A stretch of DNA of 46,179 nucleotides from positions 1 through 46,179 of the forward strand of contig PCQY01000018.1 in NCBI GenBank assembly GCA_002770755.1, in the 5' to 3' direction. Every line of letters begins with the position of its first letter. Position 1 is the first letter of the stretch. Shown piece after piece: positions 1,134 to 46,179 of this stretch. Both the position numbers and the translations under genes were made by a program. The notes under the pieces were generated by a model. That model saw nothing but the letters and a program-made list of their open reading frames with translations. It had not been told where the DNA came from and searched no databases. This stretch comes from a candidate division WWE3 bacterium CG23_combo_of_CG06-09_8_20_14_all_40_14 (GTDB taxonomy: Bacteria > Patescibacteriota > WWE3 > CG2-30-40-12).

Positions 1134-1163
1134 CTTTAACCCCCGAGGTTAAAGGGTTTTTTT
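1134..1163 (+). terminator. rho-independent terminator
   Basis: Stem ctttaacc / ggttaaag with a 5-nt loop, followed by ggttttttt, 10 nt after the stop at 1123. Confidence 0.7.
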
Positions 1164-2028: not shown

Positions 2029-2881
2029 GGGTAATCAATACGAGTTGGTACAAGATTTGGTAAGATGAGGAACATGTATCAACTCAATCAAATACCATCA
2101 GAAACACAGATACAGAAAAATATCCGTCAAGCCGTGTTTGGAACTCATATGTTTTGTCCGGTTTGCCAGTCACGGAATGTGGTTCGGTATGGAGAAAGGT
2201 ATCGCTGTCGGAAGTGTCGGACAAAATTCTCGCTTCTTTCTCATACTTGGCTTTCTAATATGAAGTTGGGGTTGGAAATCTTTTGGTTTGTTCTCTGGTG
2301 TTGGATTTCTCAAGTTCCAGTTAAACAGACAATGGCTTTAACCAAACTTTCCGAAAAAACAGTCCGACTTTGGTTTGATCGATTTCGGAGTCATCTTCCC
2401 GAAGAGGAGAATACTTTGGGAAAGATTATCCAATTAGATGAAGCATACTTCGGAGGCGAAACGGGAGAACACTCTTTATGGGTAAAGAAATCGGAACCAG
2501 AAACTTGGTCTACCGCACTCTACCTCATCCCCATCCGGCGCGAGAAGATGCTTGGGAGTTTCTCCAACGGTATGTTGCTCCCAAGAGTACTATCTGCACC
2601 GATGGGGCAGGAATCTATCGCGGAATTGATAGTTGGTGGCCGGTCAAACACGAAACAGATATCCACAAGAAATTTCAGTTTGAAAAGACAAGCGAGATCG
2701 AAGGAATATTTGGGGTCTTGCGCACCTTTATCCGAAGGATGTATCATCATGTCACGGTGGACAAGTTACCATATCTCGTGGGTGAATTTTGCTTCAGATT
2801 TTGCCACCCAGAAATCTTTGAAGACCCGCGGAGTTACTTGATGTCAGCTCTTAAGCTTGTACCAACTGGGTAAGATAACCC
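2029..2881 (+). mobile_element. IS1595-family insertion sequence (853 bp) with terminal inverted repeats and a near-perfect target duplication
   Basis: Left end gggtaatcaatacgagttggtacaag versus the reverse complement of the right end gggttatcttacccagttggtacaag: 20/26 identical, with the inner 12 bp perfect (2043-2054 / 2856-2867). Flanking direct repeat ggggggtg (2021-2028) versus tgggggtg (2882-2889). Encloses the transposase frames. Confidence 0.75.
2065..2873 (+). pseudogene. IS1595/ISXO2-like transposase, frameshifted
   Basis: The N-terminal frame has a zinc ribbon (CPVCQS...YRCRKCRTKF), a helix-turn-helix region and the DEAYFGG motif. The DDE-domain remainder (STICTDGAGIY...H..D.H...FEKTSEIEGIFG...YL.EF.FRF) continues in the ORF at 2478-2873, in a different frame. 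The frames can only be joined by a 1-nt shift around 2455-2480, and no slippery motif is present. Confidence 0.75.
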
Positions 2882-3524: not shown

Positions 3525-4022
3525 ATGATTATTTTGGGGATAGACCCCGGAACCGCTTCAACAGGATGGGGACTAGTTAGAAAACTGCAAAATCCCCCTA
3601 AAAATGGCAACGGCATTGAACTTTTGGATTATGGGTGTATTAGAACTCCCCCCGATTTAGCAATGCCGAAAAGGCTTCTTTTATTAAAAAATGAATTATC
3701 CAGTATAATTACTGCCCATAAGCCAATGGCGCTAGTGGTAGAGAGGATTTTTTTTAACACCAATGTCAAAACGGCTATTAGCGTTGGGCAGGCTAGGGGA
3801 GTGGTTATGCTTTTATCGGCACAGTTTGAGGCGGAATTTTTTGAATATACAGCTTTGCAGGCAAAAAAAGAACTTACCGGTTATGGTAGGGCAGGCAAGC
3901 AGGAGATGCAAAAGGCGGCGGCTGATTATTTGGGCATTGTAGAGAAAATAAAACCCGATGATGCGGCAGACGCTTTAGCGCTAGCGATATTTCACTGCCT
4001 AAGAATCGGAAAGAAGGTATAA
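3525..4022 (+). CDS. ruvC: crossover junction endodeoxyribonuclease RuvC
   Basis: MIILGIDPGTASTGWG N-terminus and C-terminal DDAADALALAI motif. The ATG at 3525 is in frame with the ORF-track start at 3510. Confidence 0.85.
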   Translation: MIILGIDPGTASTGWGLVRKLQNPPKNGNGIELLDYGCIRTPPDLAMPKRLLLLKNELSSIITAHKPMALVVERIFFNTNVKTAISVGQARGVVMLLSAQFEAEFFEYTALQAKKELTGYGRAGKQEMQKAAADYLGIVEKIKPDDAADALALAIFHCLRIGKKV

Positions 4023-5397: not shown

Positions 5398-6375
5398 ATG
5401 CCCCAGAATCAATTTTTGCTGCTTAAAATGACTAATATATCATCCTTAAAAACTGAATTTTTGGAGCATAGCGAGATAGAAAGAAATTTGAGCCAGTACA
5501 CAATTAAGATGTACGATTACTGTTTAAGAGATTTTGTGGAGTTTGCGAAAAAGCATTTAGGAAAGGATATAGTTGATTTAAGTGAAATAAATTTAGACTT
5601 AGTAAAAGATTACCGCATAAATTTAAACCGCAGAATAAGTTCAAAATCCCGCGAAAGTTTTAAAGTTTCTACTCAAAACGAATTTTTGGTGGCGTTAAGG
5701 TCATTTTTAAAATTTTTAGCGGTGGAAAAAAATTTGCAGGTTTTAGAAATTGCTAAACTTCGGCTTGCCAAGCCGGAAGCTCGTGTTCCAAAATTCTTAA
5801 ATGACGAGCAGTTGGATAGGTTTTTAAGTGTGCAAAATATTGAGAGGAAGAGCGGAGTTAGAGATAGGGCTATTTTGGAGGTTTTGTTTAGTACAGGCTT
5901 AAGGGTTGGCGAGCTGGTAAAGCTAAATGTTGACGATGTAAAAAATGCGTTTGAAAGCAAAGAATTTAATGTTATAGGAAAAGGCAGAAAAGTGCGGGTT
6001 GTGTATTTGTCTGAATCGGCGGTGATATGGTTAAAGAAATATCTTTCTTTAAGGAAAGATTCCTATAAACCCTTGTTTTTGAGGTATAGCGGGAAGTTAC
6101 CCGAGGTAAATGACCCGGACGGCGAAAGTTTTAGATTAACGGCGAGAAGCATTCAAAGGCTTGTTAAAAAGTATATCCTAAAAGCGGGTATTTCCGTTGA
6201 CGCTACTCCTCATACTTTAAGGCATACTTTTGCCACAGATTTGTTAACTAAAGGCGCGGATTTGCGAAGCGTTCAAGAACTTTTGGGCCATTCCAATATC
6301 CAAACTACGCAAATATATACGCACTTAACCAACCCACAACTAAAAGAGGTCTTTGAAAAATTTCACAAGAAATGA
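5398..6375 (+). CDS. tyrosine site-specific recombinase, XerC/XerD-like
   Basis: SAM-like N-terminal domain. Catalytic signature RDRAILEVLFSTGLRVGEL ... HTLRHTFAT ... LLGHSNIQTTQIYTH (R..HxxR..H..Y). A second ATG at 5428 is an alternative start. Confidence 0.85.
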   Translation: MPQNQFLLLKMTNISSLKTEFLEHSEIERNLSQYTIKMYDYCLRDFVEFAKKHLGKDIVDLSEINLDLVKDYRINLNRRISSKSRESFKVSTQNEFLVALRSFLKFLAVEKNLQVLEIAKLRLAKPEARVPKFLNDEQLDRFLSVQNIERKSGVRDRAILEVLFSTGLRVGELVKLNVDDVKNAFESKEFNVIGKGRKVRVVYLSESAVIWLKKYLSLRKDSYKPLFLRYSGKLPEVNDPDGESFRLTARSIQRLVKKYILKAGISVDATPHTLRHTFATDLLTKGADLRSVQELLGHSNIQTTQIYTHLTNPQLKEVFEKFHKK

Positions 6376-6434
6376 TACTCTATAGTGTATAGTATGTCTT
6401 GGACAATGGGCATTTTTAGAAAGGAGAAAATAAA

Positions 6435-6656
6435 ATGAGCGGATTGATAGGAGGAAGTGGCTACTATTGTGATATTGAAGGAAATCCTGTTCCAGCTCAG
6501 TTTGTTTCAATTGAGCTCGTTCAGGTGACATGCTGGGGTTGTGGAATGGTGTGGGTGCCCAAGAGCCCCTGTCAGCCCGGGAAATCCCACACAGTTAAAT
6601 GTCCGAACTGTGGTTTGCGGCGGACAATCGCTTTCGTAGCAAAATCCTACTACTAA
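6435..6656 (+). CDS. small zinc-ribbon protein (73 aa), unknown function
   Basis: Strong RBS (aaaggagaaaataaaATG). CWGC...C...CPNC cysteine pairs. Visibly more GC-rich than its neighbours. A hairpin terminator follows. Confidence 0.55.
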   Translation: MSGLIGGSGYYCDIEGNPVPAQFVSIELVQVTCWGCGMVWVPKSPCQPGKSHTVKCPNCGLRRTIAFVAKSYY

Positions 6657-6676
6657 AGGTTGTGTTTGCAAAAACT

Positions 6677-6722
6677 GACCCAGACCTTTTTTTCTAATTC
6701 TATTAGAGAATAGGTTTGGGTC
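6677..6722. terminator. hairpin between convergent genes (bidirectional terminator candidate)
   Basis: gacccagacc ... ggtttgggtc 10-bp stem with an inner tctaat/attaga stem. There is a T-run after it on the minus strand (agtttttgc). Confidence 0.5.
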
Positions 6723-6723
6723 T

Positions 6724-7413
6724 CTACTTTGATTGCCTTATCGGGGAGAAACTTTTGCGATGGATTGCGCAGGGTCCATAAATTTTAAGAGCTTCTAAAT
6801 GCTCCCTAGTCCCATACCCCTTGTGTCTGTTGAAGCCGTACTCGGGATATTTAGTATGCAAATCACCCATCATTTTGTCCCTATGTACTTTGGCAATTAT
6901 GGAAGCCGCCGCAATTGATATTGAAACAGCATCTCCGAATTTTATGTTCATTTGATTTTTAAGGAGGGGGGTTATGTTAGGTGTTCTAGGCAGCTTAAGT
7001 AATCTAAATAAACAGATATCCGACGAAGTGAGTTTTAGATAATCGGTAATAATAAAGGTAGGCGCTACCTTTAAGTTTGCGAGCGCCAAAAGGAAAGCGA
7101 GCTTGTTTGCTTTTCCTATTCCTATTCGGTCTATAACATCCGTTTCCACTACGCCAACTCCAATGGAGAGGGCGGTTTCTCTAATTTTAACATCCAGCTC
7201 GGTTCTTATTTTTGGGGATAGTTTCTTGGAATCCCTAATGAGAGACAAATAGGGCGCTGACCCTAAAGGGTCGGACCCTTTAAGATTAAGAATGACTGCA
7301 GAAGCAACGATAGGTCCCGCCAGTGGCCCTCTTCCCACCTCGTCCACCCCGGCTATCATCTTATACCCTTGCTTTATTAGATTGTTCTCAAGCTCTAAAT
7401 TTGGTGCATTCAT
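6724..7413 (-). CDS. rnhB: ribonuclease HII
   Basis: GVDEVGRGPLAGPIVASAVIL and DSKKLS motifs; 229 aa. Confidence 0.9.
   Translation of the reverse strand: MNAPNLELENNLIKQGYKMIAGVDEVGRGPLAGPIVASAVILNLKGSDPLGSAPYLSLIRDSKKLSPKIRTELDVKIRETALSIGVGVVETDVIDRIGIGKANKLAFLLALANLKVAPTFIITDYLKLTSSDICLFRLLKLPRTPNITPLLKNQMNIKFGDAVSISIAAASIIAKVHRDKMMGDLHTKYPEYGFNRHKGYGTREHLEALKIYGPCAIHRKSFSPIRQSK
7251..7280. repeat. degenerate REP-like sequence embedded in frame in rnhB
   Basis: agggcgctgaccctaaagggtcggaccctt versus REP aggggtctgaccccaaaggggtcagacccct, about 25/31 identical with one 1-nt gap. On the minus strand it encodes KGSDPLGSAPY. Confidence 0.6.
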
Positions 7414-7437: not shown

Positions 7438-7468
7438 AGGGGTCTGACCCCTTTGGGGTCAGACCCCT
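7438..7468. repeat. REP-like 31-nt double palindrome (copy B)
   Basis: aggggtctgacccc-ttt-ggggtcagacccct, perfect, between the rnhB start and the gyrA stop. Confidence 0.9.
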
Positions 7469-19003: not shown

Positions 19004-19059
19004 AGAGACCATTAAAAGGGGGTGAAAGAAGGAATGCAATTAAATAGAAAAGGTTTTAC
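19004..19059 (+). repeat. 56-bp perfect direct repeat, copy 1 (5'UTR, RBS and leader peptide of pilin 1)
   Basis: agagaccattaaaagggggtgaaagaaggaatgcaattaaatagaaaaggttttac, identical to 19579-19634. Confidence 0.95.
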
Positions 19060-19504
19060 GCTTATTGAGCTTTTAATAGTTATTGTTATTTTGGGTATTT
19101 TAGCGGTAGCGATACTCTCTGCAATTAACCCGATAGAACAGATTAGAAAAGCGAATGACGCGGGTAAAAGGAGCGATTCTGCGGAGCTTTTGAATGCTTA
19201 CGAAAGGTATTACACCACATTTCAAGCTTATCCGTGGGGGGCGGCAGTGCCAACCCATGTACTAGCTAATGCGGCAGGTGCTGGAGTAGCTGAGTTAGCG
19301 GCAAAAAATGAAGTAAAGCCTGAATTTCAGAGAAGAACTAATCTTGGGTTGTTGTATGTAACGCAGGATACCGCCAGTTTGGTGCATGTTTGTTTCCTTC
19401 CGGAATCCGCAACTTCTAAGGCGGTCGCGTCTTTTACATCCGCTTGCGATGGAACATTGGGGACGAAGGGCGCAGTCGGAAACTGTATATGCATGCCGGA
19501 GTAA
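19034..19504 (+). CDS. type IV pilin (candidate major pilin 1)
   Basis: MQLNRKG|FTLIELLIVIVILGILA class III signal peptide with Glu5. GAAGGA RBS. First gene after pilC. Confidence 0.85.
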   Translation: MQLNRKGFTLIELLIVIVILGILAVAILSAINPIEQIRKANDAGKRSDSAELLNAYERYYTTFQAYPWGAAVPTHVLANAAGAGVAELAAKNEVKPEFQRRTNLGLLYVTQDTASLVHVCFLPESATSKAVASFTSACDGTLGTKGAVGNCICMPE

Positions 19505-19578
19505 TTACGAATATCTAGTGTTTAGCATCTGCCAGCTGATTTTGTGTTATGGAAATTTGTAACCATAGACCAGCGGCT

Positions 19579-19634
19579 AGAGACCATTAAAAGGGGGTGA
19601 AAGAAGGAATGCAATTAAATAGAAAAGGTTTTAC
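19579..19634 (+). repeat. 56-bp perfect direct repeat, copy 2 (5'UTR, RBS and leader peptide of pilin 2)
   Basis: Identical to 19004-19059, offset by 575 bp. Confidence 0.95.
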
Positions 19635-20103
19635 ATTAGTAGAGTTATTGGTAGTTATTGCTATTGTGGCAGTTTTAGCGGGAGTGGTTTTGGTGGCTAT
19701 TAATCCTGCTAAAATAATGTCGGAATCGCGAGACGCCGCAAGGCTTTCGGATATGGACACCTTAAATAAGGCTATAACATTGGCAATCGCCGATGAGGAA
19801 TACACATTGGTTGCTGCGCAAGGCAGTTCTCTTACAGGTACCATAGCCGTGGATGGCACTGGTTGGGTGTCGTACACTGTTCCCGCCAACAAAATAGGGC
19901 TTGGGAAGTATCTAGCGGTTTTACCGCGAGATCCTGAACACATCGGAGGTCTGTTGGCGTATGAGTACAAAGCGGATGCCAATGGGTATGTGTTGCGATG
20001 CCAATTGCAGTCGCTAAAGTATACTTCTAAAATGACTACGGATGGCGGTGAGTCCGCTGTGCATTATGAGGTTGGAACAGATCCAGGGCTTGATTTGTTT
20101 TAA
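19609..20103 (+). CDS. type IV pilin (candidate major pilin 2)
   Basis: MQLNRKG|FTLVELLVVIAIVAVLAG. The mature part is unrelated to pilin 1 beyond the N-terminal helix. Confidence 0.85.
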   Translation: MQLNRKGFTLVELLVVIAIVAVLAGVVLVAINPAKIMSESRDAARLSDMDTLNKAITLAIADEEYTLVAAQGSSLTGTIAVDGTGWVSYTVPANKIGLGKYLAVLPRDPEHIGGLLAYEYKADANGYVLRCQLQSLKYTSKMTTDGGESAVHYEVGTDPGLDLF

Positions 20104-20219
20104 TTTGTTTGGAAGGTTTTATGAGATTCTACCCTCCGCCTTTGTTGGTTAGCTGGAATATGGCGGGGGGTTAGGGTCCCCTAAAGAAAATACTGCCTTT
20201 CTTGGGTCTAGTGTAAGTT

Positions 20220-21089
20220 ATGACTTTTTTTATTTATCTCTACATATTCTTAATAGGCGCATGCGCAGGTTCGTTTTTGAATGTGGTTATTGACCGTTTT
20301 CCCAAGCGCCAAAAACTTATAAAATCACGCTCAATTTGTCCCTTTTGCAAAACCCCCCTCTCTTTCAGAGATTTACTGCCGATTGTTTCATTTGTTTTAT
20401 TAGGAGGAAAGTGCAGGTATTGCAAAAAGAAAATTGATAAAACACTGCCTTTAGTTGAAATTTTAGCAGGGGTAATGTTTATTTTGGTTATGAGTATAGA
20501 CGGGGGTATAGGAGGTGTGGGTATAGTGGAGAAATTGTACTATTTAGCAATATTTAGTGTGCTTTTGGCGGTGTTTTTTATGGACTTAAAATATGGGGTT
20601 ATTGAAGACAAGCTTGTTTTGGCAGGGGTTTTTATTTGGGGTTTTTACACCGTTTTTTCAAAGGCGGGTATTTTGTATTTCTACTACACGAGTTTAAGAG
20701 GAGACGCTTTTGGAAAATATTTAATTAAAGCGGGGTTTTTAAATAGTTTATTTGTTAGGGAGCTAAAGGAAGTTTTTTTAAGTTTGTTATGCGCAGTTAT
20801 TTTGTTTTTGTTTTTTTATTTTTTGGCGTTTATAACCCGCGGGCGCGGTATAGGCGGCGGAGATGTAAAATTTGCGTTTTTGATGGGGCTTATTCTAGGC
20901 TTTCCGAAAATAATTCCCGCCTTTTTCTTATCCTTCTTGACAGGCGCTTTGGTTAGTCTCATACTTATATTATTAAGGAAAAAAACGATAAAGCAAACAG
21001 TTCCTTTTGGTCCATTTTTGGTTTTTGGGGCGGTTCTAGGGCTTCTTTTTGGAGAGGGTATTGTTAGCTGGTACTTAAAGTTTTTGTAG
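20220..21089 (+). CDS. pilD: prepilin peptidase / N-methyltransferase PilD (A24 family)
   Basis: CPFC...CRYC zinc motif, polytopic membrane protein, GGGDVKF active-site Asp motif. Confidence 0.9.
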   Translation: MTFFIYLYIFLIGACAGSFLNVVIDRFPKRQKLIKSRSICPFCKTPLSFRDLLPIVSFVLLGGKCRYCKKKIDKTLPLVEILAGVMFILVMSIDGGIGGVGIVEKLYYLAIFSVLLAVFFMDLKYGVIEDKLVLAGVFIWGFYTVFSKAGILYFYYTSLRGDAFGKYLIKAGFLNSLFVRELKEVFLSLLCAVILFLFFYFLAFITRGRGIGGGDVKFAFLMGLILGFPKIIPAFFLSFLTGALVSLILILLRKKTIKQTVPFGPFLVFGAVLGLLFGEGIVSWYLKFL

Positions 21090-21104
21090 AGAGCGGGTGA
21101 GATA

Positions 21105-21563
21105 ATGAACAAAGAAAAAATTGTTACTTTCCTAAAATCTATGAAAGATAAGTTGGGTTTGTCCACTTATTGTAAAAAAGAAGGCGGAAAGGACGGAGGC
21201 TTTACATTAATTGAACTTCTTATTGTTATTGCCATAATCGGGATTTTAGCAGGAATCGTTATAGCTGTAATAAACCCCACGAGACAAAGGACAAAAGCTA
21301 ACGAGGCGGTATTAAGAGCTAATGTTGCGAAGATGTGTCAGGCATGGGCGGCCTGTTTGAACGCGTCCCCCACGGGTAATTTGGCGGAATGCAATACAGC
21401 GGCTTTGGCTGGCATAAATGTACCAAATCCAGTTGTCCCTGTGAAGGCCGTATACCGTTATACAAACAACCGTTGGCAGGGAGTGTTAGGGTCATGCACT
21501 ATTTATTGCGATAGGACATCGTTTAAACCAACATTGAGTGGAACCTGCGCTATTGTTCAATAA
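21105..21563 (+). CDS. prepilin-type N-terminal cleavage/methylation domain protein (long leader, Cys-rich)
   Basis: ...KEGGKDGG|FTLIELLIVIAIIGILAG. GGTGAG RBS before the ATG at 21105 gives a 32-aa leader. Six Cys residues in the globular part. Confidence 0.75.
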   Translation: MNKEKIVTFLKSMKDKLGLSTYCKKEGGKDGGFTLIELLIVIAIIGILAGIVIAVINPTRQRTKANEAVLRANVAKMCQAWAACLNASPTGNLAECNTAALAGINVPNPVVPVKAVYRYTNNRWQGVLGSCTIYCDRTSFKPTLSGTCAIVQ

Positions 21564-21568
21564 CATTT

Positions 21569-22003
21569 ATGGATAAGGAAGCGTTTACATTGGTGGAACT
21601 GCTTATTGTGGTTTCTATTATAGGAATACTTGCCGGGGTGGCAATTGCGGTTATAAACCCCAATAAAGTTCGCGGCAGGGCAAGGGACGGCGTTCGCAAA
21701 AACGATATTGCTGTTATAAAAGGCGCTATTGAAAACTATTACGCCGAAAACAATATCTATCCCGCGACTGGAACTATTCCCTTTGGCGGAGTCTGGGCTA
21801 ATTATCTAAAACTTGTTCCGCAGGACCCTCTTATTGCAGGTGGCGCCAGTTGGGTTCAGTACTGCTACGCAAGTATTGATGCCAATAATTTTATTCTATG
21901 CGCAAAAGTTGAGGATAGCAATTCTGCCTATGTCCCAAGCGGCGCAAGTCCTTGCGGGGGGATAGCGGTAACGGAGGCATATTGCGCGCAGAATCCGTTT
22001 TAA
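21569..22003 (+). CDS. prepilin-type N-terminal cleavage/methylation domain protein
   Basis: MDKEA|FTLVELLIVVSIIGILAG. Ala rather than Gly at position -1. Confidence 0.75.
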   Translation: MDKEAFTLVELLIVVSIIGILAGVAIAVINPNKVRGRARDGVRKNDIAVIKGAIENYYAENNIYPATGTIPFGGVWANYLKLVPQDPLIAGGASWVQYCYASIDANNFILCAKVEDSNSAYVPSGASPCGGIAVTEAYCAQNPF

Positions 22004-22012
22004 TGTTTAAAA

Positions 22013-22516
22013 ATGGAGAAAGTTATAGGGGTCAGACCCCTGCTAAAAGGGTTTACGCTTGTTGAGCTGATTGTTGTTGTAGCGCTGGTTTCAATGATAG
22101 CTTCGTTGTCTTTAGTGGCTCTTAACCCTGCCGATATTTTTGCCCGCTCCCGCGATTCAAAAAGATTATCCGATTTAGCTTTTTTGACGAACGCCTTTGA
22201 GCGGTATAATATTGATAATGGAGTTTATCCTGACTCAGCGGCGATTATGCGGGTAAGCAGTTCTCTGCCTCAAGACCAAACAGGACCTTTGCAAAGCGCC
22301 TCTTCCGGTTGGATAGTGGGTGATATGTCTAAATATATCTCCCGCCTTTCTACGGATCCCAAAAACGAGGATTTTTTGGTGTATAGATACAAAAGGTCTG
22401 AAAATGCCTATGAACTTGATTGCTATTTAGAATATTACAAGGAAAAATCTCAAGCGGATGGCGGCAATAATGCGGAGAGATTTGAAGTGGGAAATGATAT
22501 GAGTATTTTGCCGTAA
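22013..22516 (+). CDS. prepilin-type N-terminal cleavage/methylation domain protein
   Basis: MEKVIGVRPLLKG|FTLVELIVVVAL. The leader codons overlap a REP half-site. Confidence 0.75.
   Translation: MEKVIGVRPLLKGFTLVELIVVVALVSMIASLSLVALNPADIFARSRDSKRLSDLAFLTNAFERYNIDNGVYPDSAAIMRVSSSLPQDQTGPLQSASSGWIVGDMSKYISRLSTDPKNEDFLVYRYKRSENAYELDCYLEYYKEKSQADGGNNAERFEVGNDMSILP
22027..22041. repeat. REP half-site (15-nt palindrome aggggtcagacccct) inside the pilin leader codons
   Basis: Exact match to the right arm of the REP. In frame it encodes GVRPL. Confidence 0.8.
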
Positions 22517-22524
22517 CTAAAGTT

Positions 22525-22566
22525 AAAAGTTAAAAATAAATTTGATTTTTAACTTTTGATTTTTAA
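22525..22566 (+). terminator. AT-rich hairpin with T-tract between pilin genes (attenuator or terminator candidate)
   Basis: aaaagttaaaaat (22525-22537) pairs with atttttaactttt (22545-22557) around a 7-nt loop, then gattttt. Confidence 0.4.
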
Positions 22567-22569
22567 CCT

Positions 22570-23040
22570 ATGCCTTATAAGGGATTTACTTTGGTGGAGC
22601 TTTTAATAAGTGTTTCGGTAATAGTTATTCTAACCGCTATTGCTCTGCCTATTTTTGCTACAACAGGAAGCAATCAAACATTAACTCAGAATTTTGAAAA
22701 TATTAAATCCGATCTGCGAATTGTTCAGGCTAAATCTCTCTCAGGTATTGTTTCGGGGGATAACGGTTACTGGGGCATCCGTTTTAATTGCGCAGGCGGA
22801 AAGGCTGTTAGCTACATTCTGGGCCAGCCCAACAACGCTTCCGACCCTTTGTCTGAAATATATCCTGGTATCCAAAAACTTTTAACCTTTGGTGTATATG
22901 TAAAATGCTCCAATTCTTTCCAAGTGGTGTTTTTGAAAAATACCGCAAAACCCGCGGAAGGAAGTATTTCTATAGTTGTGGCGGATGGGAAAAATGCGGA
23001 CAAAACAATTGTTGTGAATGCTCAGGGTAGTGTAGAATAA
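22570..23040 (+). CDS. minor pilin / pseudopilin (FimT/GspH-like)
   Basis: MPYKG|FTLVELLISVSVIVILTAIALP. Confidence 0.7.
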   Translation: MPYKGFTLVELLISVSVIVILTAIALPIFATTGSNQTLTQNFENIKSDLRIVQAKSLSGIVSGDNGYWGIRFNCAGGKAVSYILGQPNNASDPLSEIYPGIQKLLTFGVYVKCSNSFQVVFLKNTAKPAEGSISIVVADGKNADKTIVVNAQGSVE

Positions 23041-23095
23041 AATTCAAATGATAAAATTCAAAAGTTTTATAAATTTGAATTTTGAGCTTTGAATT
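23041..23095 (+). promoter_or_regulatory. bipartite AT-rich hairpin ending 5 nt before the next start codon
   Basis: aattcaaa (23041-48) pairs with tttgaatt (23088-95), and aaaattcaaa (23053-62) pairs with tttgaatttt (23074-83). A 4x4 internal loop lies between the two stems. Confidence 0.4.
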
Positions 23096-23100
23096 TGAGA

Positions 23101-23559
23101 ATGTACACAAATGACAAAGGACAGACTCTAATAGAGGTTGTTTTGGCGGTGGCGATTGCCGTTATTGTTATTTATGCGTTGGTTTCGCTTGCCACCATAT
23201 CCATGCTTTACGCTCAATCTGCTCTAAGAAGAAGCGAAGCGGTAAAATTGGCAAATGCCGGAATGGAGGCTTTTAGATTGGAGCGGGATATGGGAGGTTT
23301 TGATAGCGGCTGTTTAGTTCCCAGTGGATTGGGTAACACTTATATTATTAGCGATTCCCCTACAACTTGCGCTTTTTTGGAGATGACCAGTAATCCGTAT
23401 GAATCTATAACCCCGCGAACAAATGTAATTTATAAAAGGTCTATGACAGTTGAGGATGTGGGCGCGGATAAAAAGAATGTCCGCGTTACCGTTAAGTGGA
23501 CGGAGGGAACTTCTGAACGAAAGGTTTCAATGTCGGGGGTTTTAACCAACTGGAGGTAA
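23101..23559 (+). CDS. minor pilin (PilV-like)
   Basis: MYTNDKG|QTLIEVVLAVAIAVIV. The ATG at 23101 is preferred over the TTG at 23089. Confidence 0.65.
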   Translation: MYTNDKGQTLIEVVLAVAIAVIVIYALVSLATISMLYAQSALRRSEAVKLANAGMEAFRLERDMGGFDSGCLVPSGLGNTYIISDSPTTCAFLEMTSNPYESITPRTNVIYKRSMTVEDVGADKKNVRVTVKWTEGTSERKVSMSGVLTNWR

Positions 23560-23563
23560 TGGT

Positions 23564-24133
23564 ATGCTTGCTTCAAAAAAAGGTGTAACCTTGATAGAAC
23601 TTTTAATAGTGGTTGGAGTCATATCCATTGTGGCGGCAGTGGGTGGGGATATCCTGCTTACCGTTATTAGAGCCTATAAAAAAGCCCAGATTTTGGGTAC
23701 GGTGGAACAAAACGGTTCGGTGTCGTCAACCTTTCTTGAAAATAATTTGAGAGACGCTTCTGTTATAAGATACGAAGGCGGGGGGCAGTTTGTGGAAATT
23801 CCCGAAGGGGAAAGTGTCTCATCCGACTATATTAAGATTACAAGTTCCCAAGGGGTAACTGCCACAATACAATTTGTGGAAGGCGGAACGGGAGGAAGTT
23901 GTCCCAACGGAAAAATTGAGGTTGATGGTGTTTCTATAACTAGTACGGATGTCAACAGCGGTGTTAATGTAATAAAAAAGAATGGCGGCGCTATTTTTAC
24001 TATTTATAATCCGGATAACACCCCTCCGGTTATTACAACGATTTTTGATGTAACACAGGCCTGCCAAAGCCCAGTTACAGCAAAGGCGGAGTTTAACACC
24101 ACGGTAACATTAAGAGGAAATTATGGGGATTAA
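23564..24133 (+). CDS. minor pilin (PilW-like)
   Basis: MLASKKG|VTLIELLIVVGVISIVAA. Confidence 0.65.
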   Translation: MLASKKGVTLIELLIVVGVISIVAAVGGDILLTVIRAYKKAQILGTVEQNGSVSSTFLENNLRDASVIRYEGGGQFVEIPEGESVSSDYIKITSSQGVTATIQFVEGGTGGSCPNGKIEVDGVSITSTDVNSGVNVIKKNGGAIFTIYNPDNTPPVITTIFDVTQACQSPVTAKAEFNTTVTLRGNYGD

Positions 24134-24180
24134 AGTAATTTACAACATATATTTTTGGGGTTACAATTAATGGGGGTATT

Positions 24181-24978
24181 ATGAACAAACTTTTTTCGTG
24201 TATTCTAAATAATAGGAATAAAGGTCAGGCTACATTAGTGGTGGTTGTTTTGGTTATGGTGGTGTCTCTTGCAGTGGGAGTTGCCGCGTCCAACCGCGCC
24301 ATATCCAATATCAGAATGGCCGCCTATACAGCGCAAGGAGACCAAGCTTTGCATTGCGCGGAATCCGGGGCGGAGGATGGCTTAAATAAAATAAATGAGC
24401 TGGAAAAAAGCTCTTTTGGAACATACAATGCTGTTTTGAAAGATTCGGACAATGTGGATATTTGCAGTTATGAGTACACCATCTCCGAATTTTCCGGAGA
24501 GGTTTTAACTTATCCCCTTGTTAAACAAGATGATTCTCAAGAAGTTAACTTAGACGGCTACAACGGAAGTTTGAGCATTTATTTTGGCAGTGACGATTCC
24601 GCCGCTTTAGAAATCACATTCATAAAAGGGTCTTCCCCTCCCTACTCGGTTGAAAAATACGCGTATAATTGCGAGGAACTATACGATAATAATTTTGAGG
24701 ATGGTTCCTCCAATGGCGGCGAGGACCTTCCCTGTGGAACGGAGTCTTTTAATATCAGCGGTTACAAAATCGCCCGTATTAGACCCCTTTATGCCGATAC
24801 AAAAGTTGTGGTTAAATTCGGCAGTGTTAGCCAGTCGCAGGGCTATTTAATTGAGTCTATAGGTTCTGCGGGAACTGCGCAGAGAAAAGTTCAAGTTATA
24901 AGAACCAATGCACAGCTCCCTGCCATATTTGATTACAGCATTTTCTCAGCGTCTGAAACCGAACCTTTGAGTAAGTAG
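24181..24978 (+). CDS. PilX-like pilus assembly protein
   Basis: NRNKGQATLVVVVLVMVVSLAVGVA N-terminal segment, typical of the PilX N-terminal domain (no Glu5). GGGGG RBS. Confidence 0.55.
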   Translation: MNKLFSCILNNRNKGQATLVVVVLVMVVSLAVGVAASNRAISNIRMAAYTAQGDQALHCAESGAEDGLNKINELEKSSFGTYNAVLKDSDNVDICSYEYTISEFSGEVLTYPLVKQDDSQEVNLDGYNGSLSIYFGSDDSAALEITFIKGSSPPYSVEKYAYNCEELYDNNFEDGSSNGGEDLPCGTESFNISGYKIARIRPLYADTKVVVKFGSVSQSQGYLIESIGSAGTAQRKVQVIRTNAQLPAIFDYSIFSASETEPLSK

Positions 24979-35976: not shown

Positions 35977-36408
35977 TCAAGAACTTCTTTGCAAAAATTT
36001 GTCAATTTGTGAAACGAATTCGTCAAAATCGGAAAGGTTGTTTTGAATAATATTATATATTTCTTTTGGATCAACATCCTCGTATTGGTGAACAAAGATA
36101 TTTCTTGCTCCAATCGCCTTTTCCATTTTATTGGAAATTTCTTTGGTAATTATTTTCTTTTTGGCGAGAAGTGGAAAAACCTCTCTATTTTTCTTGTATC
36201 GACCCAAAAGAAGTTGAGATGTTATATGTTGAGAAATATCCAGCACAGCTTGTAAGGCTATTTGCAGGTGGTGAAGCGTTCCGTAATATTCATGGATATT
36301 TTTGTCATTATTAAATTCTTCAAACGAGATACCAACAAAATCAGTTAGTAGAGATCGTTCTCTTAGAATTGTTTTTAGCCTTTCCTGAATTCTTTCTTTG
36401 TCGAGCAT
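35977..36408 (-). CDS. hepT: HepT-type HEPN toxin (DUF86)
   Basis: RNIFVHQY is the Rx4HxY HEPN motif. 143 aa. Overlaps the upstream MNT gene by 34 nt. Confidence 0.8.
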   Translation of the reverse strand: MLDKERIQERLKTILRERSLLTDFVGISFEEFNNDKNIHEYYGTLHHLQIALQAVLDISQHITSQLLLGRYKKNREVFPLLAKKKIITKEISNKMEKAIGARNIFVHQYEDVDPKEIYNIIQNNLSDFDEFVSQIDKFLQRSS

Positions 36409-36812
36409 AGGTTATTCTTGGCTTGTTCAACAGAAGCCTCGTAAGCCTCGTTTAAATAAGGTTCTATGTCGTTATACTCGTTTCTTGTGGCAACTTCGAA
36501 ATCCGCCCTTTCCCCGGCGTTTTTGCAAAATACTACTTTTTGTGGGTATATTGCCTTAAATCTAAAAAGAGGAGATTTGTCATTTAAGATATTTACATGG
36601 ATGTTCCCGAATCGCGCAAGTTTTGCAGAAAGTCCCCCCTCGTCCAACAGGGAATGGTTTTCTCCTTGGTAAAACAAAACGCCAAGGTCTATATCGGAAT
36701 CTCTTTTGGCGTCGCCGTTGGATTGTGAACCATAGAGATACAAAGCCAAAATTCTAGTATCGGTTTGCAATTCTCTTTTAATTTTTTCTAGCGTTAATTT
36801 TATATTTCTCAT
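36375..36812 (-). CDS. mntA: MntA-type minimal nucleotidyltransferase antitoxin
   Basis: LYLYGSQSNGDAKRDSDIDLGVLF is the GSx10DxD motif. Confidence 0.8.
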   Translation of the reverse strand: MRNIKLTLEKIKRELQTDTRILALYLYGSQSNGDAKRDSDIDLGVLFYQGENHSLLDEGGLSAKLARFGNIHVNILNDKSPLFRFKAIYPQKVVFCKNAGERADFEVATRNEYNDIEPYLNEAYEASVEQAKNNLCSTKKEFRKG

Positions 36813-36906: not shown

Positions 36907-36921
36907 AGGGGTCTGACCCCT
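36907..36921. repeat. REP half-site followed by T8 (terminator-like on the plus strand)
   Basis: aggggtctgacccct then attttttttg. It abuts the 3' end of tRNA-Tyr. Confidence 0.75.
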
Positions 36922-36931
36922 ATTTTTTTTG

Positions 36932-37005
36932 TCCAGGGGGTTGGATTCGAACCAACGAATGGCAGTTTTACAGACTGCGGCCTTAAACCACTTGGCTACC
37001 CCTGG
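36932..37005 (-). tRNA. tRNA-Tyr (anticodon GTA), class I architecture with C1:G72
   Basis: Hand fold: CCAGGGG / TA / GCC-AAGTGGTTTAA-GGC / C / GCAGT-CTGTAAA-ACTGC / CATTC / GTTGG-TTCGAAT-CCAAC / CCCCTGG / A. 74 nt, with no encoded CCA. Confidence 0.85.
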
Positions 37006-43565: not shown

Positions 43566-45353
43566 TTACCAAAGTTCCAAACTCTTTTCTTTTATTATTT
43601 TTTGGGAGGTTTTTACAAAACTTTCTATGGTTATGTTATTAAAAGTCCTTTGATCGCGGAGTCTCACGGATATAGTATCTGTGGACATTTCCTTGTCGCC
43701 TGCGATTATCATATAAGGAATTTTTTTAGTTTGCGCTTCGCGGATTTTTGCCTGCATTGTTTCATTCCTTTCGTCCACGAAAACTCGTAAGCGGGATAAC
43801 AAAAGTCTTTCTTTTACTTTTTGGACATACTCCAAATGTTTCTCGGATATGGGTATTATCTGAACTTGGCCAGGAGAAAGCCAAACGGGAAGAGCGCCAG
43901 CGAATTTTTCCAACAAAAAAGCCATAGTTCTTTCAAAAGCGCCAATGGAAGAGCGATGGATAACTATCAACTCCTTTTCTTTTCCATCTTTATCTGCGTA
44001 GGTTAACTCAAATCTTTTTGGCATTACAAAATCGTATTGTACCGTAAATGCGGTTTCTTCTTTCCCGCCTGTTTTTTTCATTTGTACATCTATCTTTGGG
44101 CCGTAAAAAGCGGCTTCATTAGGCTCCTCGGAGAAGGTATTTTTTGTTTCGGTTAACACCTGTCTTAAAATATCTTCTGCTTTGTCCCACGCCGCATCGT
44201 CTTTATAGTATTTTTTTATATCCTTACGGTTTCCTAAAGACAATCGGTAGTTGTAATCAGTTCCTTTAATGAGTCCCAGTTTGCCGTTTACAAAATCAAT
44301 TAAGTTTAAGACATTTTTTATCTCGTCTTTTGCTTGGTCTTGCGAAGCAAAGATATGAGCATCTGCCAAGCAAAATGTTCTAACACGCATCAAGCCTGAA
44401 AGCTCTCCACTTTTTTCATATCTGAATTGTGAGGCTAGTTCGGCATATCTAATAGGGAGTTCCTTATAACTGTGTAATTTAGATTTATAAAGCATAAAAT
44501 GGTGAGGACAGGTCATAGGTCTTAGTATTAACTCTTCCTCATCAACTTTCATTTTAGGATACATAGAATCTTTGTAGTAAGGGTAATGGCCAGACTTTTT
44601 ATATAAATCAATTTTGGCAAGAGGTGGGGTAATCACATGTTGGTAACCATTTTTGGTCTCTTCGCTTATTATAAATTGTTCTAGCTCGCGGCGAATGATA
44701 GTTCCGTTTGGAGTTAGTAAGGGGAGGCCTTTCCCAACGAGGTCGGAAAATACAAAAAGGTCTAGTTCCTTTCCTAAAATTCTGTGGTCGTGTTTTTTTG
44801 CATTTTCTAGGTTGTTTAGATATCCCTCTAACTCTTTCTGTGTAGGAAAAGCGGTTCCGTAAATTCTGGTTAGCATTTTATTTTTCTCATCTCCTCGCCA
44901 ATATGCGCCGGCTATGGAGAGAAGTTTGAAGGCACCAATTTCATTGGTGGCTGTTAGATGGGGACCCTTGCAAATGTCCACAAACGAACCCTTTTTATTT
45001 GGTTCTCCTGTCCAATATGCAGTTAATTCCCCGCCTCGTTTTTGGGTTTCGTCAATCCATTCTAATTTGTAGGGATTGTTTTTAAACATTGTTTTGGCAA
45101 TTTTAACAGGAAAAGTTGTTTTAGAAATGGGGATATTAAGATTTTTTATGCGCAACATTTCTTTTTCTATTTTAGAGAAATCTTCTTCGGAGATTTTTGT
45201 TTGAAGGTCAAAATCAAAATAAAACCCATCCTCGGTAGCTGGCCCCATAGCTTTTAGAATGTTGGGGTAAAGATTTTCCATTGCCTGCATTAGAACATGT
45301 TCAGTAGTGTGCCTTAAAACGGTTAAGTGTTTGTTATAGTTGCCTTTTTCCAT
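43566..45353 (-). CDS. thrS: threonyl-tRNA synthetase (lacks N-terminal TGS domain)
   Basis: 595 aa. It starts directly in the editing/SAD domain (LRHTTEHVL), followed by the class II core and an anticodon-binding domain. Confidence 0.9.
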   Translation of the reverse strand: MEKGNYNKHLTVLRHTTEHVLMQAMENLYPNILKAMGPATEDGFYFDFDLQTKISEEDFSKIEKEMLRIKNLNIPISKTTFPVKIAKTMFKNNPYKLEWIDETQKRGGELTAYWTGEPNKKGSFVDICKGPHLTATNEIGAFKLLSIAGAYWRGDEKNKMLTRIYGTAFPTQKELEGYLNNLENAKKHDHRILGKELDLFVFSDLVGKGLPLLTPNGTIIRRELEQFIISEETKNGYQHVITPPLAKIDLYKKSGHYPYYKDSMYPKMKVDEEELILRPMTCPHHFMLYKSKLHSYKELPIRYAELASQFRYEKSGELSGLMRVRTFCLADAHIFASQDQAKDEIKNVLNLIDFVNGKLGLIKGTDYNYRLSLGNRKDIKKYYKDDAAWDKAEDILRQVLTETKNTFSEEPNEAAFYGPKIDVQMKKTGGKEETAFTVQYDFVMPKRFELTYADKDGKEKELIVIHRSSIGAFERTMAFLLEKFAGALPVWLSPGQVQIIPISEKHLEYVQKVKERLLLSRLRVFVDERNETMQAKIREAQTKKIPYMIIAGDKEMSTDTISVRLRDQRTFNNITIESFVKTSQKIIKEKSLELW

Positions 45354-45399
45354 ATTTATAGTATATCATGTTGTTTTATAAGTACAAATGTGGGCAAAT

Positions 45400-45430
45400 A
45401 GGGGTCTGACCCCAAAGGGGTCAGACCCCT
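45400..45430. repeat. REP-like 31-nt double palindrome (copy F)
   Basis: aggggtctgacccc-aaa-ggggtcagacccct, perfect. Confidence 0.9.
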
Positions 45431-45436
45431 AAATTG

Positions 45437-45465
45437 TTGACAAATACAATGTAAAAGGATAGCAT
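45437..45465 (+). promoter_or_regulatory. candidate promoter of the RAYT gene
   Basis: TTGACA, 17-nt spacer, TAGCAT. The -10 box ends 6 nt before the ATG at 45472. Confidence 0.35.
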
Positions 45466-45471
45466 TGATTT

Positions 45472-46131
45472 ATGCCTTCAAAACACCGAATTCGCCAATA
45501 CGGCGAAGATTGTTATTACCACATATATAACCGTGGTGTAGAAAAGAGAGATATTTTCCTAGACATTGCCGACTATAATTTATTTATATATACCTTGCGC
45601 AAATATTTGGAACCTGATTTCAAAATAATTAGAAAGAATCCCACAACAAATGAAAGAATAGTTATGGAACCAGATCATGTATATAAAGATATTTCTTTAC
45701 TAGCTTTTTGTTTAATGCCAAATCACTTTCATTTATTGGTGAAATTAAAAAAGCGGGATGGGGCCACAAAGTTGATGAGAAGAGTTTGTACTAATTATGT
45801 TGGATACTTCAATGAGAAATATGAAAGAGTGGGCGCTTTATTTCAAGGAACCTTCAAAGCAGTACGGGTAACTACACAAGAGCAATGTTTGCAGTTGTCT
45901 CGTTACATTCATATTAACCCAAGAGCTGTAACTTATAAAGGTAATATTGAAAGCTATGTTTACTCAAGTTTTTATTATCTTTGTAGAGATAGTACACCCT
46001 CCTGGTTGGATTTTAATAGTGTGCTTTTAGGGAACACGGTTCAGGATTATAAAAAGTTCGTTATGAGTAGGGTTGAGGAAGACTTTAGTGAAGCCGAAAA
46101 AAGCACCCTGTCAAATGTATTATTAGATTAA
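45472..46131 (+). CDS. REP-associated tyrosine transposase (RAYT) / IS200-like Y1 HUH transposase
   Basis: YHIYNRG start region, HUH motif MPNHFHLLV, and catalytic Tyr motif SRYIHINP. 219 aa. Confidence 0.8.
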   Translation: MPSKHRIRQYGEDCYYHIYNRGVEKRDIFLDIADYNLFIYTLRKYLEPDFKIIRKNPTTNERIVMEPDHVYKDISLLAFCLMPNHFHLLVKLKKRDGATKLMRRVCTNYVGYFNEKYERVGALFQGTFKAVRVTTQEQCLQLSRYIHINPRAVTYKGNIESYVYSSFYYLCRDSTPSWLDFNSVLLGNTVQDYKKFVMSRVEEDFSEAEKSTLSNVLLD

Positions 46132-46138
46132 GCTATTT

Positions 46139-46169
46139 AGGGGTCTGACCCCTTTGGGGTCAGACCCCT
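46139..46169. repeat. REP-like 31-nt double palindrome (copy G, inverted relative to F)
   Basis: aggggtctgacccc-ttt-ggggtcagacccct, perfect. Confidence 0.9.
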
Positions 46170-46179
46170 ATTTTGATGA

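Follow-up and report, generated by a model that had tools for sequence, protein, structure and literature searches.

REP/RAYT systems, in which repetitive extragenic palindromes (REPs) are paired with a REP-associated tyrosine transposase (RAYT), have been studied almost solely in Proteobacteria, and the literature treats them as replicators that persist for long, are inherited vertically, and earn their keep in the host. Here we analyzed a complete 46,179-nt contig (PCQY01000018.1, referred to below as the window) of candidate division WWE3 bacterium CG23_combo_of_CG06-09_8_20_14_all_40_14, which belongs to the candidate phyla radiation (CPR). The window carries a gene for a predicted single-stranded DNA (ssDNA) nuclease of the Y1 HUH type, flanked on both sides by inverted copies of a palindrome that recurs elsewhere in the genome. 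We consider this locus to be probably a unit of the REPtron/TIRtron type, that is, a chromosomal single-copy Y1 HUH nuclease gene together with a cognate family of palindromic DNA. Within the library that could be searched, literature searches found no RAYT or REP linked to CPR/Patescibacteria.

RAYT-like genes with terminal inverted repeats (TIRs), and not GTAG REPs, were described by Di Nocera et al. 2013 as TIRYT/TIRtron (PMC3733652). GGGGWSAS is common to many of the published TIRs; self-complementary or double-palindromic ones are among them, and certain TIR families are moderately abundant, occurring as singles, dimers, and groups (PMC3733652). In the classification of Quentin et al. 2018, 20 of the 26 TIRYTs were placed in TnpAY1 subclass 2.1, for which Table 1 of that paper gives the motifs NH[YF]H, FQ, Y[IV]HLNP, and SS and a median length of 238 aa, while Y...NP is the signature of class 2 (PMC6006769). 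Similarity to helix-turn-helix (HTH) domains at the C-terminus has been reported for many members of subclass 2.1, and a published subgroup, 2.1.2, is heterogeneous for such a domain. Subclass 2.1 is RAYT Group 1 of Bertels et al. (PMC6006769, PMC5581495). Bertels et al. 2017 found only a modest abundance of the 16-mers that flank Group 1 genes, and this group was the most insertion-sequence-like of the RAYT groups (PMC5581495).

The unit in the window is made of the following three features.

45472-46131, plus strand: HUH/Tyr (Y1) nuclease gene, 219 aa, RAYT-like/TIRYT type, ssDNA nuclease predicted from sequence and fold
45396-45434, no strand assigned: upstream flanking palindrome, doublet, 39-nt arm AAATAGGGGTCTGACCCCAAAGGGGTCAGACCCCTAAAT with the 31-nt core at 45400-45430
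46135-46173, no strand assigned: downstream flanking palindrome, doublet, exact reverse complement of 45396-45434

A preliminary description of this DNA had reported a 31-nt element on both sides of the gene, and everything it listed was present where it had been placed. The element reads AGGGGTCTGACCCC-AAA-GGGGTCAGACCCCT upstream, with 41 nt between its end and the ATG, and AGGGGTCTGACCCC-TTT-GGGGTCAGACCCCT downstream (46139-46169), beginning 7 nt past the stop codon. The two copies were exact reverse complements as described; the inverted repeat was longer, extending over 39 nt with 100% complementarity. The upstream arm ends 37 nt before the ATG, within the intergenic DNA between the divergent thrS and Y1 genes, and the downstream arm starts 3 nt after the stop codon. 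These flanking copies were the sole pair in the window that was perfect over 39 nt.

The Y1 gene was single-copy and occupied one position across all strain contigs, with thrS (divergent, start at 45353) on one side and truB on the other in every one of them. No tnpB was adjacent to the Y1 gene in the strain contigs. The ATG of truB is at 46176, 2 nt past the downstream 39-nt repeat, and truB was at the equivalent place in L001-L010 (L numbers denote the compared contigs and stretches). This position leaves truB no space for a promoter of its own, so that it must be transcribed through the unit, and the downstream hairpin, although also scored as terminator-like, cannot be an efficient terminator. 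The contig ends 6 nt beyond the downstream repeat, consistent with the assembly having broken at a sequence present in several copies. An assembly artefact was excluded because 10 contigs, assembled independently and taken from ENA, JGI, and NCBI, all carried the Y1 gene and both flanking repeats unchanged. Identical or near-identical proteins have been deposited under WWE3 bacterium CG09_land_8_20_14_0_10_39_24. The G+C content of the window was ~40%, so that it is not very AT-rich; the earlier description had called the genome AT-rich.

A transposase promoter starting just after the upstream repeat, which the repeat structure might gate, had also been proposed. The TTGACA hexamer at 45437 exists, but promoter-like sites in this region were at chance level (3 against 3.4 in shuffles). 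In the arrangement TTGACA-17-TAGCAT, one of the three, an AAGGA Shine-Dalgarno-like site precedes the -10 hexamer, only 6 nt would separate that hexamer from the ATG, and the transcript would start on the ATG, a geometry that implies a leaderless mRNA. We rejected this promoter as evidence.

The 219-aa product contains, as noted before, NHFH (residues 84-87) and YIHINP (residues 145-150). The HUH motif is H85-F-H87 and the predicted catalytic tyrosine is Y145; SS at residues 165-166 is followed by a helical C-terminal tail, and the motif LFQG is present as well. When 32 homologues were aligned, Y16, H17, R21, G22, N84, H85, H87, Y145, H147, N149, and S165 were invariant. The protein matched Pfam PF01797 (Y1_Tnp) with 35.4 bits against a cut-off of 23, and all 32 homologues also matched this model. 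With the NCBIfam models, the RAYT profile was matched by 32 of 32 family members and the IS200 profile by one of 32, at an expectation value (E) of 0.005; the window protein gave no match to transpos_IS200. An exhaustive search returned homologues in 16,900 representative clusters at E <=1e-3 and in 143 at E <=1e-30, nearly all ~200-240 aa long, and the named close relatives were all Patescibacteria (Parcubacteria, WWE3, and 'Patescibacteria group').

A comparison of folds was needed because sequence searches of the PDB were empty or weak: a single-sequence phmmer search of the PDB, including 4ER8, gave no match, and a profile search reached 4ER8 at E 0.013. The AlphaFold2 model of the protein had a predicted local distance difference test (pLDDT) value of 93 and a short helical C-terminal tail. 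The top matches of this model in a Foldseek search of the PDB were 4ER8, 2VJV, 2XM3, and 2A6O. The best one, 4ER8, is E. coli TnpA-REP with a REP hairpin (E 3.4e-6, template modelling (TM) score 0.69 on target), and the folds of IS608/ISDra2 TnpA ranked behind it at E ~5e-4. A C-terminal Bac_DnaA_C, HTH_23, or HTH_28 domain was not matched in Pfam at E <=1 in any of the 32 members. Judged by motifs, profiles, and the modelled fold, the protein belongs with the RAYT-type enzymes, as a predicted Y1 HUH nuclease, and is no IS200 transposase.

The palindrome family of this gene (family 1) is GGGGTCWGACCCC, with a 13-nt near-palindrome, GGGGTC(T/A)GACCCC, with a TA foot as its basic unit. Two units in inverted order with a 3-nt spacing form a REPIN-like doublet (REPIN, REP doublet forming hairpin), and each unit is both a direct and an inverted repeat of the other. 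Folded as ssDNA, a singlet with its TA foot formed a hairpin with 7 bp in the stem and 3 nt in the loop (-5.7 kcal/mol). In the hairpin of the upstream flank doublet, the stem had 15 bp and the loop again 3 nt (-18.2 kcal/mol, z -8.7; downstream doublet, -17.9 kcal/mol). With up to 2 mismatches allowed, the 13-mer had 22 strand-hits in the window against 0.27 expected from shuffles, and 22 hits were reached in 0 of 100 shuffles. Within the repeat, GGGGTCAG fits GGGGWSAS. The flank-oriented consensus was (A/T)TTT-A[core]T-AT(T/A), with the loop TTT in some copies and AAA in others, which could be read as a preferred TTT|AT context with the core in either orientation. The copies dispersed over the window are listed below.

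1237-1267, no strand assigned: dispersed doublet with one mismatch (GGGGTTAGACCCC) and loop AAA, between convergent open reading frames (ORFs), conserved in L196-L205
7438-7468, no strand assigned: dispersed perfect doublet, with the stop of gyrA (7477) on one side and the start of rnhB (7413) on the other
7251-7281, minus strand: decayed doublet within the coding sequence for RNase HII, where its in-frame translation is KGSDPLGSAPY
22027-22041, no strand assigned: single unit (AGGGGTCAGACCCCT) where a type IV pilin-like gene encodes its leader peptide (IGVRPL), in 10 of 10 strain contigs (L106-L115)
36907-36921, no strand assigned: single unit, 10 nt beyond tRNA-Tyr on its 3' side (tRNA at 36931-37005, minus strand), a doublet in sister strains
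37003: candidate copy beside the 5' end of a tRNA, undecidable

The copy at 7438 matched the upstream flank copy at 100% over 38 nt. The preliminary description had these copies at the right positions and took the ones at 22027 and 36907 for half-sites; single units are better read as REP-like singlets, of which at least one derives from a doublet by deletion of a 16-nt unit. One of the 22 hits, at 3536 (GGGGATAGACCCC), codes for ILGIDPG, a conserved motif of RuvC, and was for this reason set aside as a match by chance. In L196-L205, which reach ~10 kb further left than the window, three further sites were found, namely a singlet, a triplet (GGGGTCTGACCCC-AAA-GGGGTCCCCC-AAA-GGGGTCTGACCCC), and a decayed inverted pair, and no family-1 repeat was found in the 10 kb to its right. 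In total, family 1 had ~10 sites in the ~66 kb of this genome that was read. The decayed pair is one of an extended unit (GGGGTCCGACCTCATCCGCC ... GGCGGAGAGGGTCTGACCCC, L196 17904-17957) and lies within a PseudoU_synth_2 gene. Its ATCCGCC extension is shared with the singlet at L196 14283, suggesting a repeat sub-family.

Most family-1 copies lacked a T-run. An explanation of the copies as terminators only was rejected, because the T-run is missing at most of them and truB starts 2 nt past the downstream repeat.

Footprints of the repeat in coding sequences had been claimed without distinction between genes. In RNase HII, alignment to solved RNase HII structures placed an insertion of 7-10 residues exactly at the 7251-7281 repeat, and we regard this footprint as real on the basis of the alignment. 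In the pilin-like protein, the singlet at 22027 encodes GVRP in a 12-residue leader (MEKVIGVRPLLKG|FTLVEL), where a footprint is plausible only. The RNase HII gene lies at 6724-7413 on the minus strand, and the repeat-derived insertion corresponds to residues ~44-54. A second insertion of ~20 residues (LTSSDICLFRLLKLPRTPNITPLLKNQ...) was seen at residues ~127-159 in comparison with S. aureus RNase HII (5Y9P); with the Thermotoga RNase HII entries 3O3G and 2ETJ, the match broke into two stretches and the region of the second insertion was unaligned. Separately, the homologue P0043 (alignment A1, columns ~165-175) has an insertion, NPIIQGSDPSNSNKG, between its Tyr motif and its SS motif. Translation of GGGTCAGACCCC gives GSDP, so that a repeat unit may have inserted into this Y1 gene, as reported for subclass 2.4.

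A second Y1_Tnp gene was found ~7.4-8.1 kb left of the window (L196 19387-20070, minus strand). It encodes a 227-aa protein with NHVH and YIILNP, which is 36% identical to the window protein and is its sole paralog in ~66 kb. This gene is bracketed by another palindrome, CTTTAACC-TCGGG-GGTTAAAG upstream and its inverse downstream, and four sites of the corresponding second family, CTTTAACC-N5-GGTTAAAG, were counted in the region read. These include a perfect copy at window 1134-1154, just past the stop codon of the ORF at 338-1123; the family-1 doublet at 1237 is 80 nt away from it.

The pairing of gene and palindrome was then found to extend to relatives. We compared 80 metagenomic loci whose proteins were 33-55% identical, with both flanks available in 66. 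The two 200-nt flanks of the same gene shared an exact word of at least 12 nt in 49 of the 66 (74%; median longest word 17.5 nt). As controls, flanks paired across loci gave 12 of 600, and other ORFs of these loci gave 8 of 135 (2-6%). The shared words were palindromes on the theme xxGGTCnGACCxx, in singlet or doublet form; the upstream word ended at a distance of 0-120 nt (mostly 13-40) from the start codon, and the downstream one began 0-49 nt (mostly <20) after the stop codon. Flank words also varied together with the proteins: they were shared by 45% of the protein pairs that were 60-75% identical and by 1-4% of the pairs below 60%. Beyond the flanks, 14 extra sites were found in 286 kb, for which our own rough estimate of the chance expectation is ~0.3. 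A location near thrS was seen in 1 of the 80 relatives, indicating that the location is stable within the species and not across long distances. In 2.9 million viral contigs there was one weak match; together with the constant thrS-truB position among strains, this resembles the distribution of a housekeeping gene. These comparisons of sequence support a cognate nuclease/palindrome system in three ways, by the paralog with its own palindrome, by flank pairing, and by co-variation.

The same palindrome was observed in distant hosts. The identical 29-nt stem pair GGGGTCTGACCCC-NNN-GGGGTCAGACCCC, with ~30 different loops, occurred in 95 stretches (L011-L105) from other genomes, including Duganella, Rugamonas, Marinobacter, Gaiellaceae/Actinomycetota, Isosphaeraceae, and other metagenome-assembled genomes. 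A Y1 homologue lay within 8 kb of it in only one of the 95 stretches, L038 from Duganella alba, where the palindrome (7031-7059) is 130 nt upstream of the Y1 ORF (6198-6899), on one side only and next to gltB. The encoded protein has 233 aa with NHVH and YIEFNP, and is 28% identical to the window protein (BLASTP E 4e-24). The Duganella case agrees with the GGGGWSAS motif but is no proof; it could fit a recognition core common to subclass 2.1, or it could be convergence of very low-complexity nested palindromes.

If the locus is a REPtron/TIRtron-type unit, the enzyme would act on these palindromes and move them, as we infer by analogy with E. coli TnpA-REP (PMC3479197, PMC8266576) and with IS608/ISDra2 TnpA. 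The predicted enzyme would bind a hairpin folded on ssDNA, for example at the replication fork, and cleave beside its foot, with His85 and His87 holding a metal ion and Tyr145 forming a 5'-phosphotyrosine link. The strands would be rejoined after cleavage, and such cutting and joining could spread, excise, or homogenise the units.

Several observations weigh against this reading. The NCBIfam equivalog model REP_Tyr_transpos (NF047646) scored the protein at 45.8 bits over residues 72-165 only, below its cut-off of 80, and no GTAG/GTGG was found beside any copy as a GT[AG]G guide at the hairpin foot, where the sequence is (A/T)TTTA-GGGG. On these two points the unit is not the canonical REP-RAYT that the preliminary description made of it; the RAYT-type Y1 protein, the inverted flanks, and the dispersed repeat were as it had said. 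The repeat census covers ~66 kb of this genome. In the relatives, 44 of 56 had no extra copy within the 0.3-10 kb examined, so that many genomes may have no palindromes other than those beside the gene. The start and stop codons are at a fixed distance from the palindromes, which would suit a regulatory role as well. To our knowledge, no member of subclass 2.1 has been assayed so far. Automatic and manual searches by Quentin et al. detected no REP-like sequences near subclass 2.1 genes (PMC6006769).

The comparison of strains belongs to the same side. The available strain contigs were 99.4-99.97% identical, and no insertion/absence polymorphism of any repeat site was seen among them; at an identity of at least 99.4%, such a comparison is uninformative on mobility, and mobility is unproven. 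The earlier statement that the system operates went too far in this respect, as the repeat sites were the same in all strains and a single doublet/singlet change was seen. This change is at tRNA-Tyr, where the window has a singlet and L001-L007 have the doublet GGGGTCTGACCCT-AAA-GGGGTC[C/T]GACCCC. The 16-nt unit was the only gap in 9.4-10.7 kb of alignment with L001-L003 and L005-L007 (99.6-99.8% identity), and L004 had one further gap. This marks the repeat as a hot spot of change, a point in favor of the REPtron/TIRtron reading. Since the units are direct as well as inverted repeats, replication slippage accounts for the change from doublet to singlet without any enzyme. An ORF for an IS1595-family DDE transposase (window 2065-2841, plus strand; Pfam DDE_Tnp_IS1595) did vary among these near-identical strains: it was absent in L198, and another ORF of 193 aa was in its place in L199 and L201. 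Real insertion polymorphism is thus present in the population for a classical insertion sequence, not for the palindromes.

Among the other explanations, the one that survives best, though we regard it as unlikely, is that the palindromes are regulatory or structural elements of the host, such as terminators, attenuators, mRNA-stabilising hairpins, or operators, and that the Y1 protein is domesticated and no longer moves DNA. The protein would then be a factor that binds or processes DNA or RNA hairpins, possibly autoregulating through its flanks, and selection or gene conversion would maintain the likeness of the copies. Such a role would suit the nearly fixed start and stop distances across relatives, the location of several copies at the 3' ends of genes (gyrA, tRNA-Tyr, and Y1) with a terminator-like downstream copy, the lack of nearby extra copies in most relatives, and the lack of site turnover among strains. 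The invariant HUH and Tyr residues, however, argue for retained cleavage chemistry, and identical sequences of 31-38 nt at unrelated loci, like the decayed in-frame copies in RNase HII and the pilin leader, are hard to explain without insertion events. Terminator function in particular conflicts with the missing T-run at most copies and with the truB start.

We give still less weight to the possibility that palindrome, gene, and palindrome together form an autonomous insertion sequence (IS) like those of the IS200/IS605 family, with the dispersed 31-nt copies as solo ends or derivatives resembling miniature inverted-repeat transposable elements (MITEs). Identical ends do bracket the gene tightly, the location is not conserved over long distance, as only 1 of 80 distant relatives is near thrS, and Group 1 RAYTs are the most IS-like (PMC5581495). 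Against an element of this kind speak the protein, which has Y...NP rather than Y...Q and leaves the NCBIfam IS200 model unmatched, and the ends, which are inverted and identical, not a distinct left end (LE) and right end (RE) on one strand. In addition, there is no adjacent tnpB, and no identical second copy of the gene was found in the ~66 kb read, the paralog being 36% identical with other ends. Every strain has the unit at one and the same place, transcription of truB must pass through it, and the family is essentially absent from viral contigs. Lastly, that a common GC-rich hairpin merely happens to sit on both sides of an unrelated Y1 gene is very improbable and effectively refuted. In its favor, the same 29-nt palindrome occurs in unrelated phyla (Duganella, Marinobacter, and Gaiellaceae), mostly without a Y1 gene within 8 kb. 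Against it, flanks are paired in 74% of relatives and in 2-6% of controls, the paralog is bracketed by a palindrome of its own, palindromes and proteins vary together, and only the flanking pair is perfect over 39 nt.

Two neighboring regions of the window were also recorded. The interval 19022-24978 contains at least eight type IV pilin-like genes with an N-terminal (K)GFTL(I/V)ELL and a prepilin peptidase gene at 20220-21089; the N-termini of these pilins are the largest direct-repeat families of the window (D1-D3). A toxin-antitoxin pair of the HepT-like/nucleotidyltransferase (MNT) type (35977-36812, minus strand; Pfam PF01934 and PF01909) adjoins tRNA-Tyr and the polymorphic repeat site.

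The arrangement of the REPtron/TIRtron-type unit is a known one; what is new is the host lineage (CPR) and the breadth of flank pairing in uncultured relatives. Two divergent paralogs with their own palindromes, and paired flanks in three quarters of the relatives, extend the known range to an ultra-small CPR genome, and flank pairing contradicts the published view that subclass 2.1 enzymes have no cognate repeats. A wider proposal, which we put forward tentatively and hold to be somewhat short of an even chance, is that a large 2.1-like Y1 clade centered on CPR/Patescibacteria, published as 'not REP-associated', is systematically paired with lineage-specific, co-evolving nested palindromes. 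Under this proposal, REPIN/RAYT-like replicators would persist in the most reduced (~1 Mb) genomes, would insert in frame into essential genes (RNase HII, pseudouridine synthase, and the pilin leader), and would share the GGGGWSAS core with distant phyla. The compact perfect hairpins of 13 nt and 31 nt offer substrates for a first biochemical test of a 2.1 enzyme. For annotation, such genes should not be named IS200 transposases, and the GC-rich palindromes may account for contig breaks and for odd in-frame GSDP/GVRP peptides in CPR proteins.

With the IS200/IS605 TnpA elements (IS608 and ISDra2; subclass 1.1), the locus shares the HUH/Tyr core and presumably the recognition of hairpins on ssDNA. 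The window protein differs by Y...NP instead of Y...Q, and by being ~70 aa longer with a C-terminal tail; its gene has no tnpB neighbor and is not multi-copy in the region read, and its ends are identical and inverted, whereas IS200/IS605 has distinct LE/RE hairpins on one strand.

The likeness to canonical REP/RAYT systems (TnpA-REP/YafM, the REPIN-RAYT of Pseudomonas, and subclasses 2.2 and 2.5) includes the Y1 HUH fold, for which 4ER8 was the best match, and Y...NP (here YIHINP) with a (W/Y)xSS(F/Y) tail after it. There is a single copy of the gene, in a syntenic position and held by vertical descent; a dispersed palindrome stands in inverted copies at its flanks, singlets and inverted doublets correspond to REP and REPIN, each paralog has one repeat family, and in-frame intragenic copies occur. 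The differences are the missing GT[AG]G foot, the NCBIfam score of 45.8 against 80 bits, a sequence likeness to 4ER8 that is seen by profile only (E 0.013), and units that are very short (13 nt) and perfect, with a doublet spacer of 3 nt, which makes the doublet itself one perfect hairpin.

The window protein matches TnpAY1 subclass 2.1/TIRYT, a placement made from motifs and pairwise similarity rather than from a tree. It has NHFH, LFQG, YIHINP (with I for L), and SS, and its 219 aa are close to the ~220-240 aa of this type. Like the TIRYTs, the system has a low copy number, TIRs that bracket the gene at short, fairly constant distances, and a double-palindromic repeat that carries GGGGWSAS (here GGGGTCAG) and occurs as singles and dimers. 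It differs in its host, a CPR bacterium (WWE3), whereas the described cases are from Proteobacteria, Acidobacteria, and others, and in that a C-terminal HTH-like domain is undetectable in the 32 members of the window family. Finally, in contrast to subclass 2.1 as described by Quentin et al., for which none were reported, flank palindromes were paired in 74% of the relatives here.

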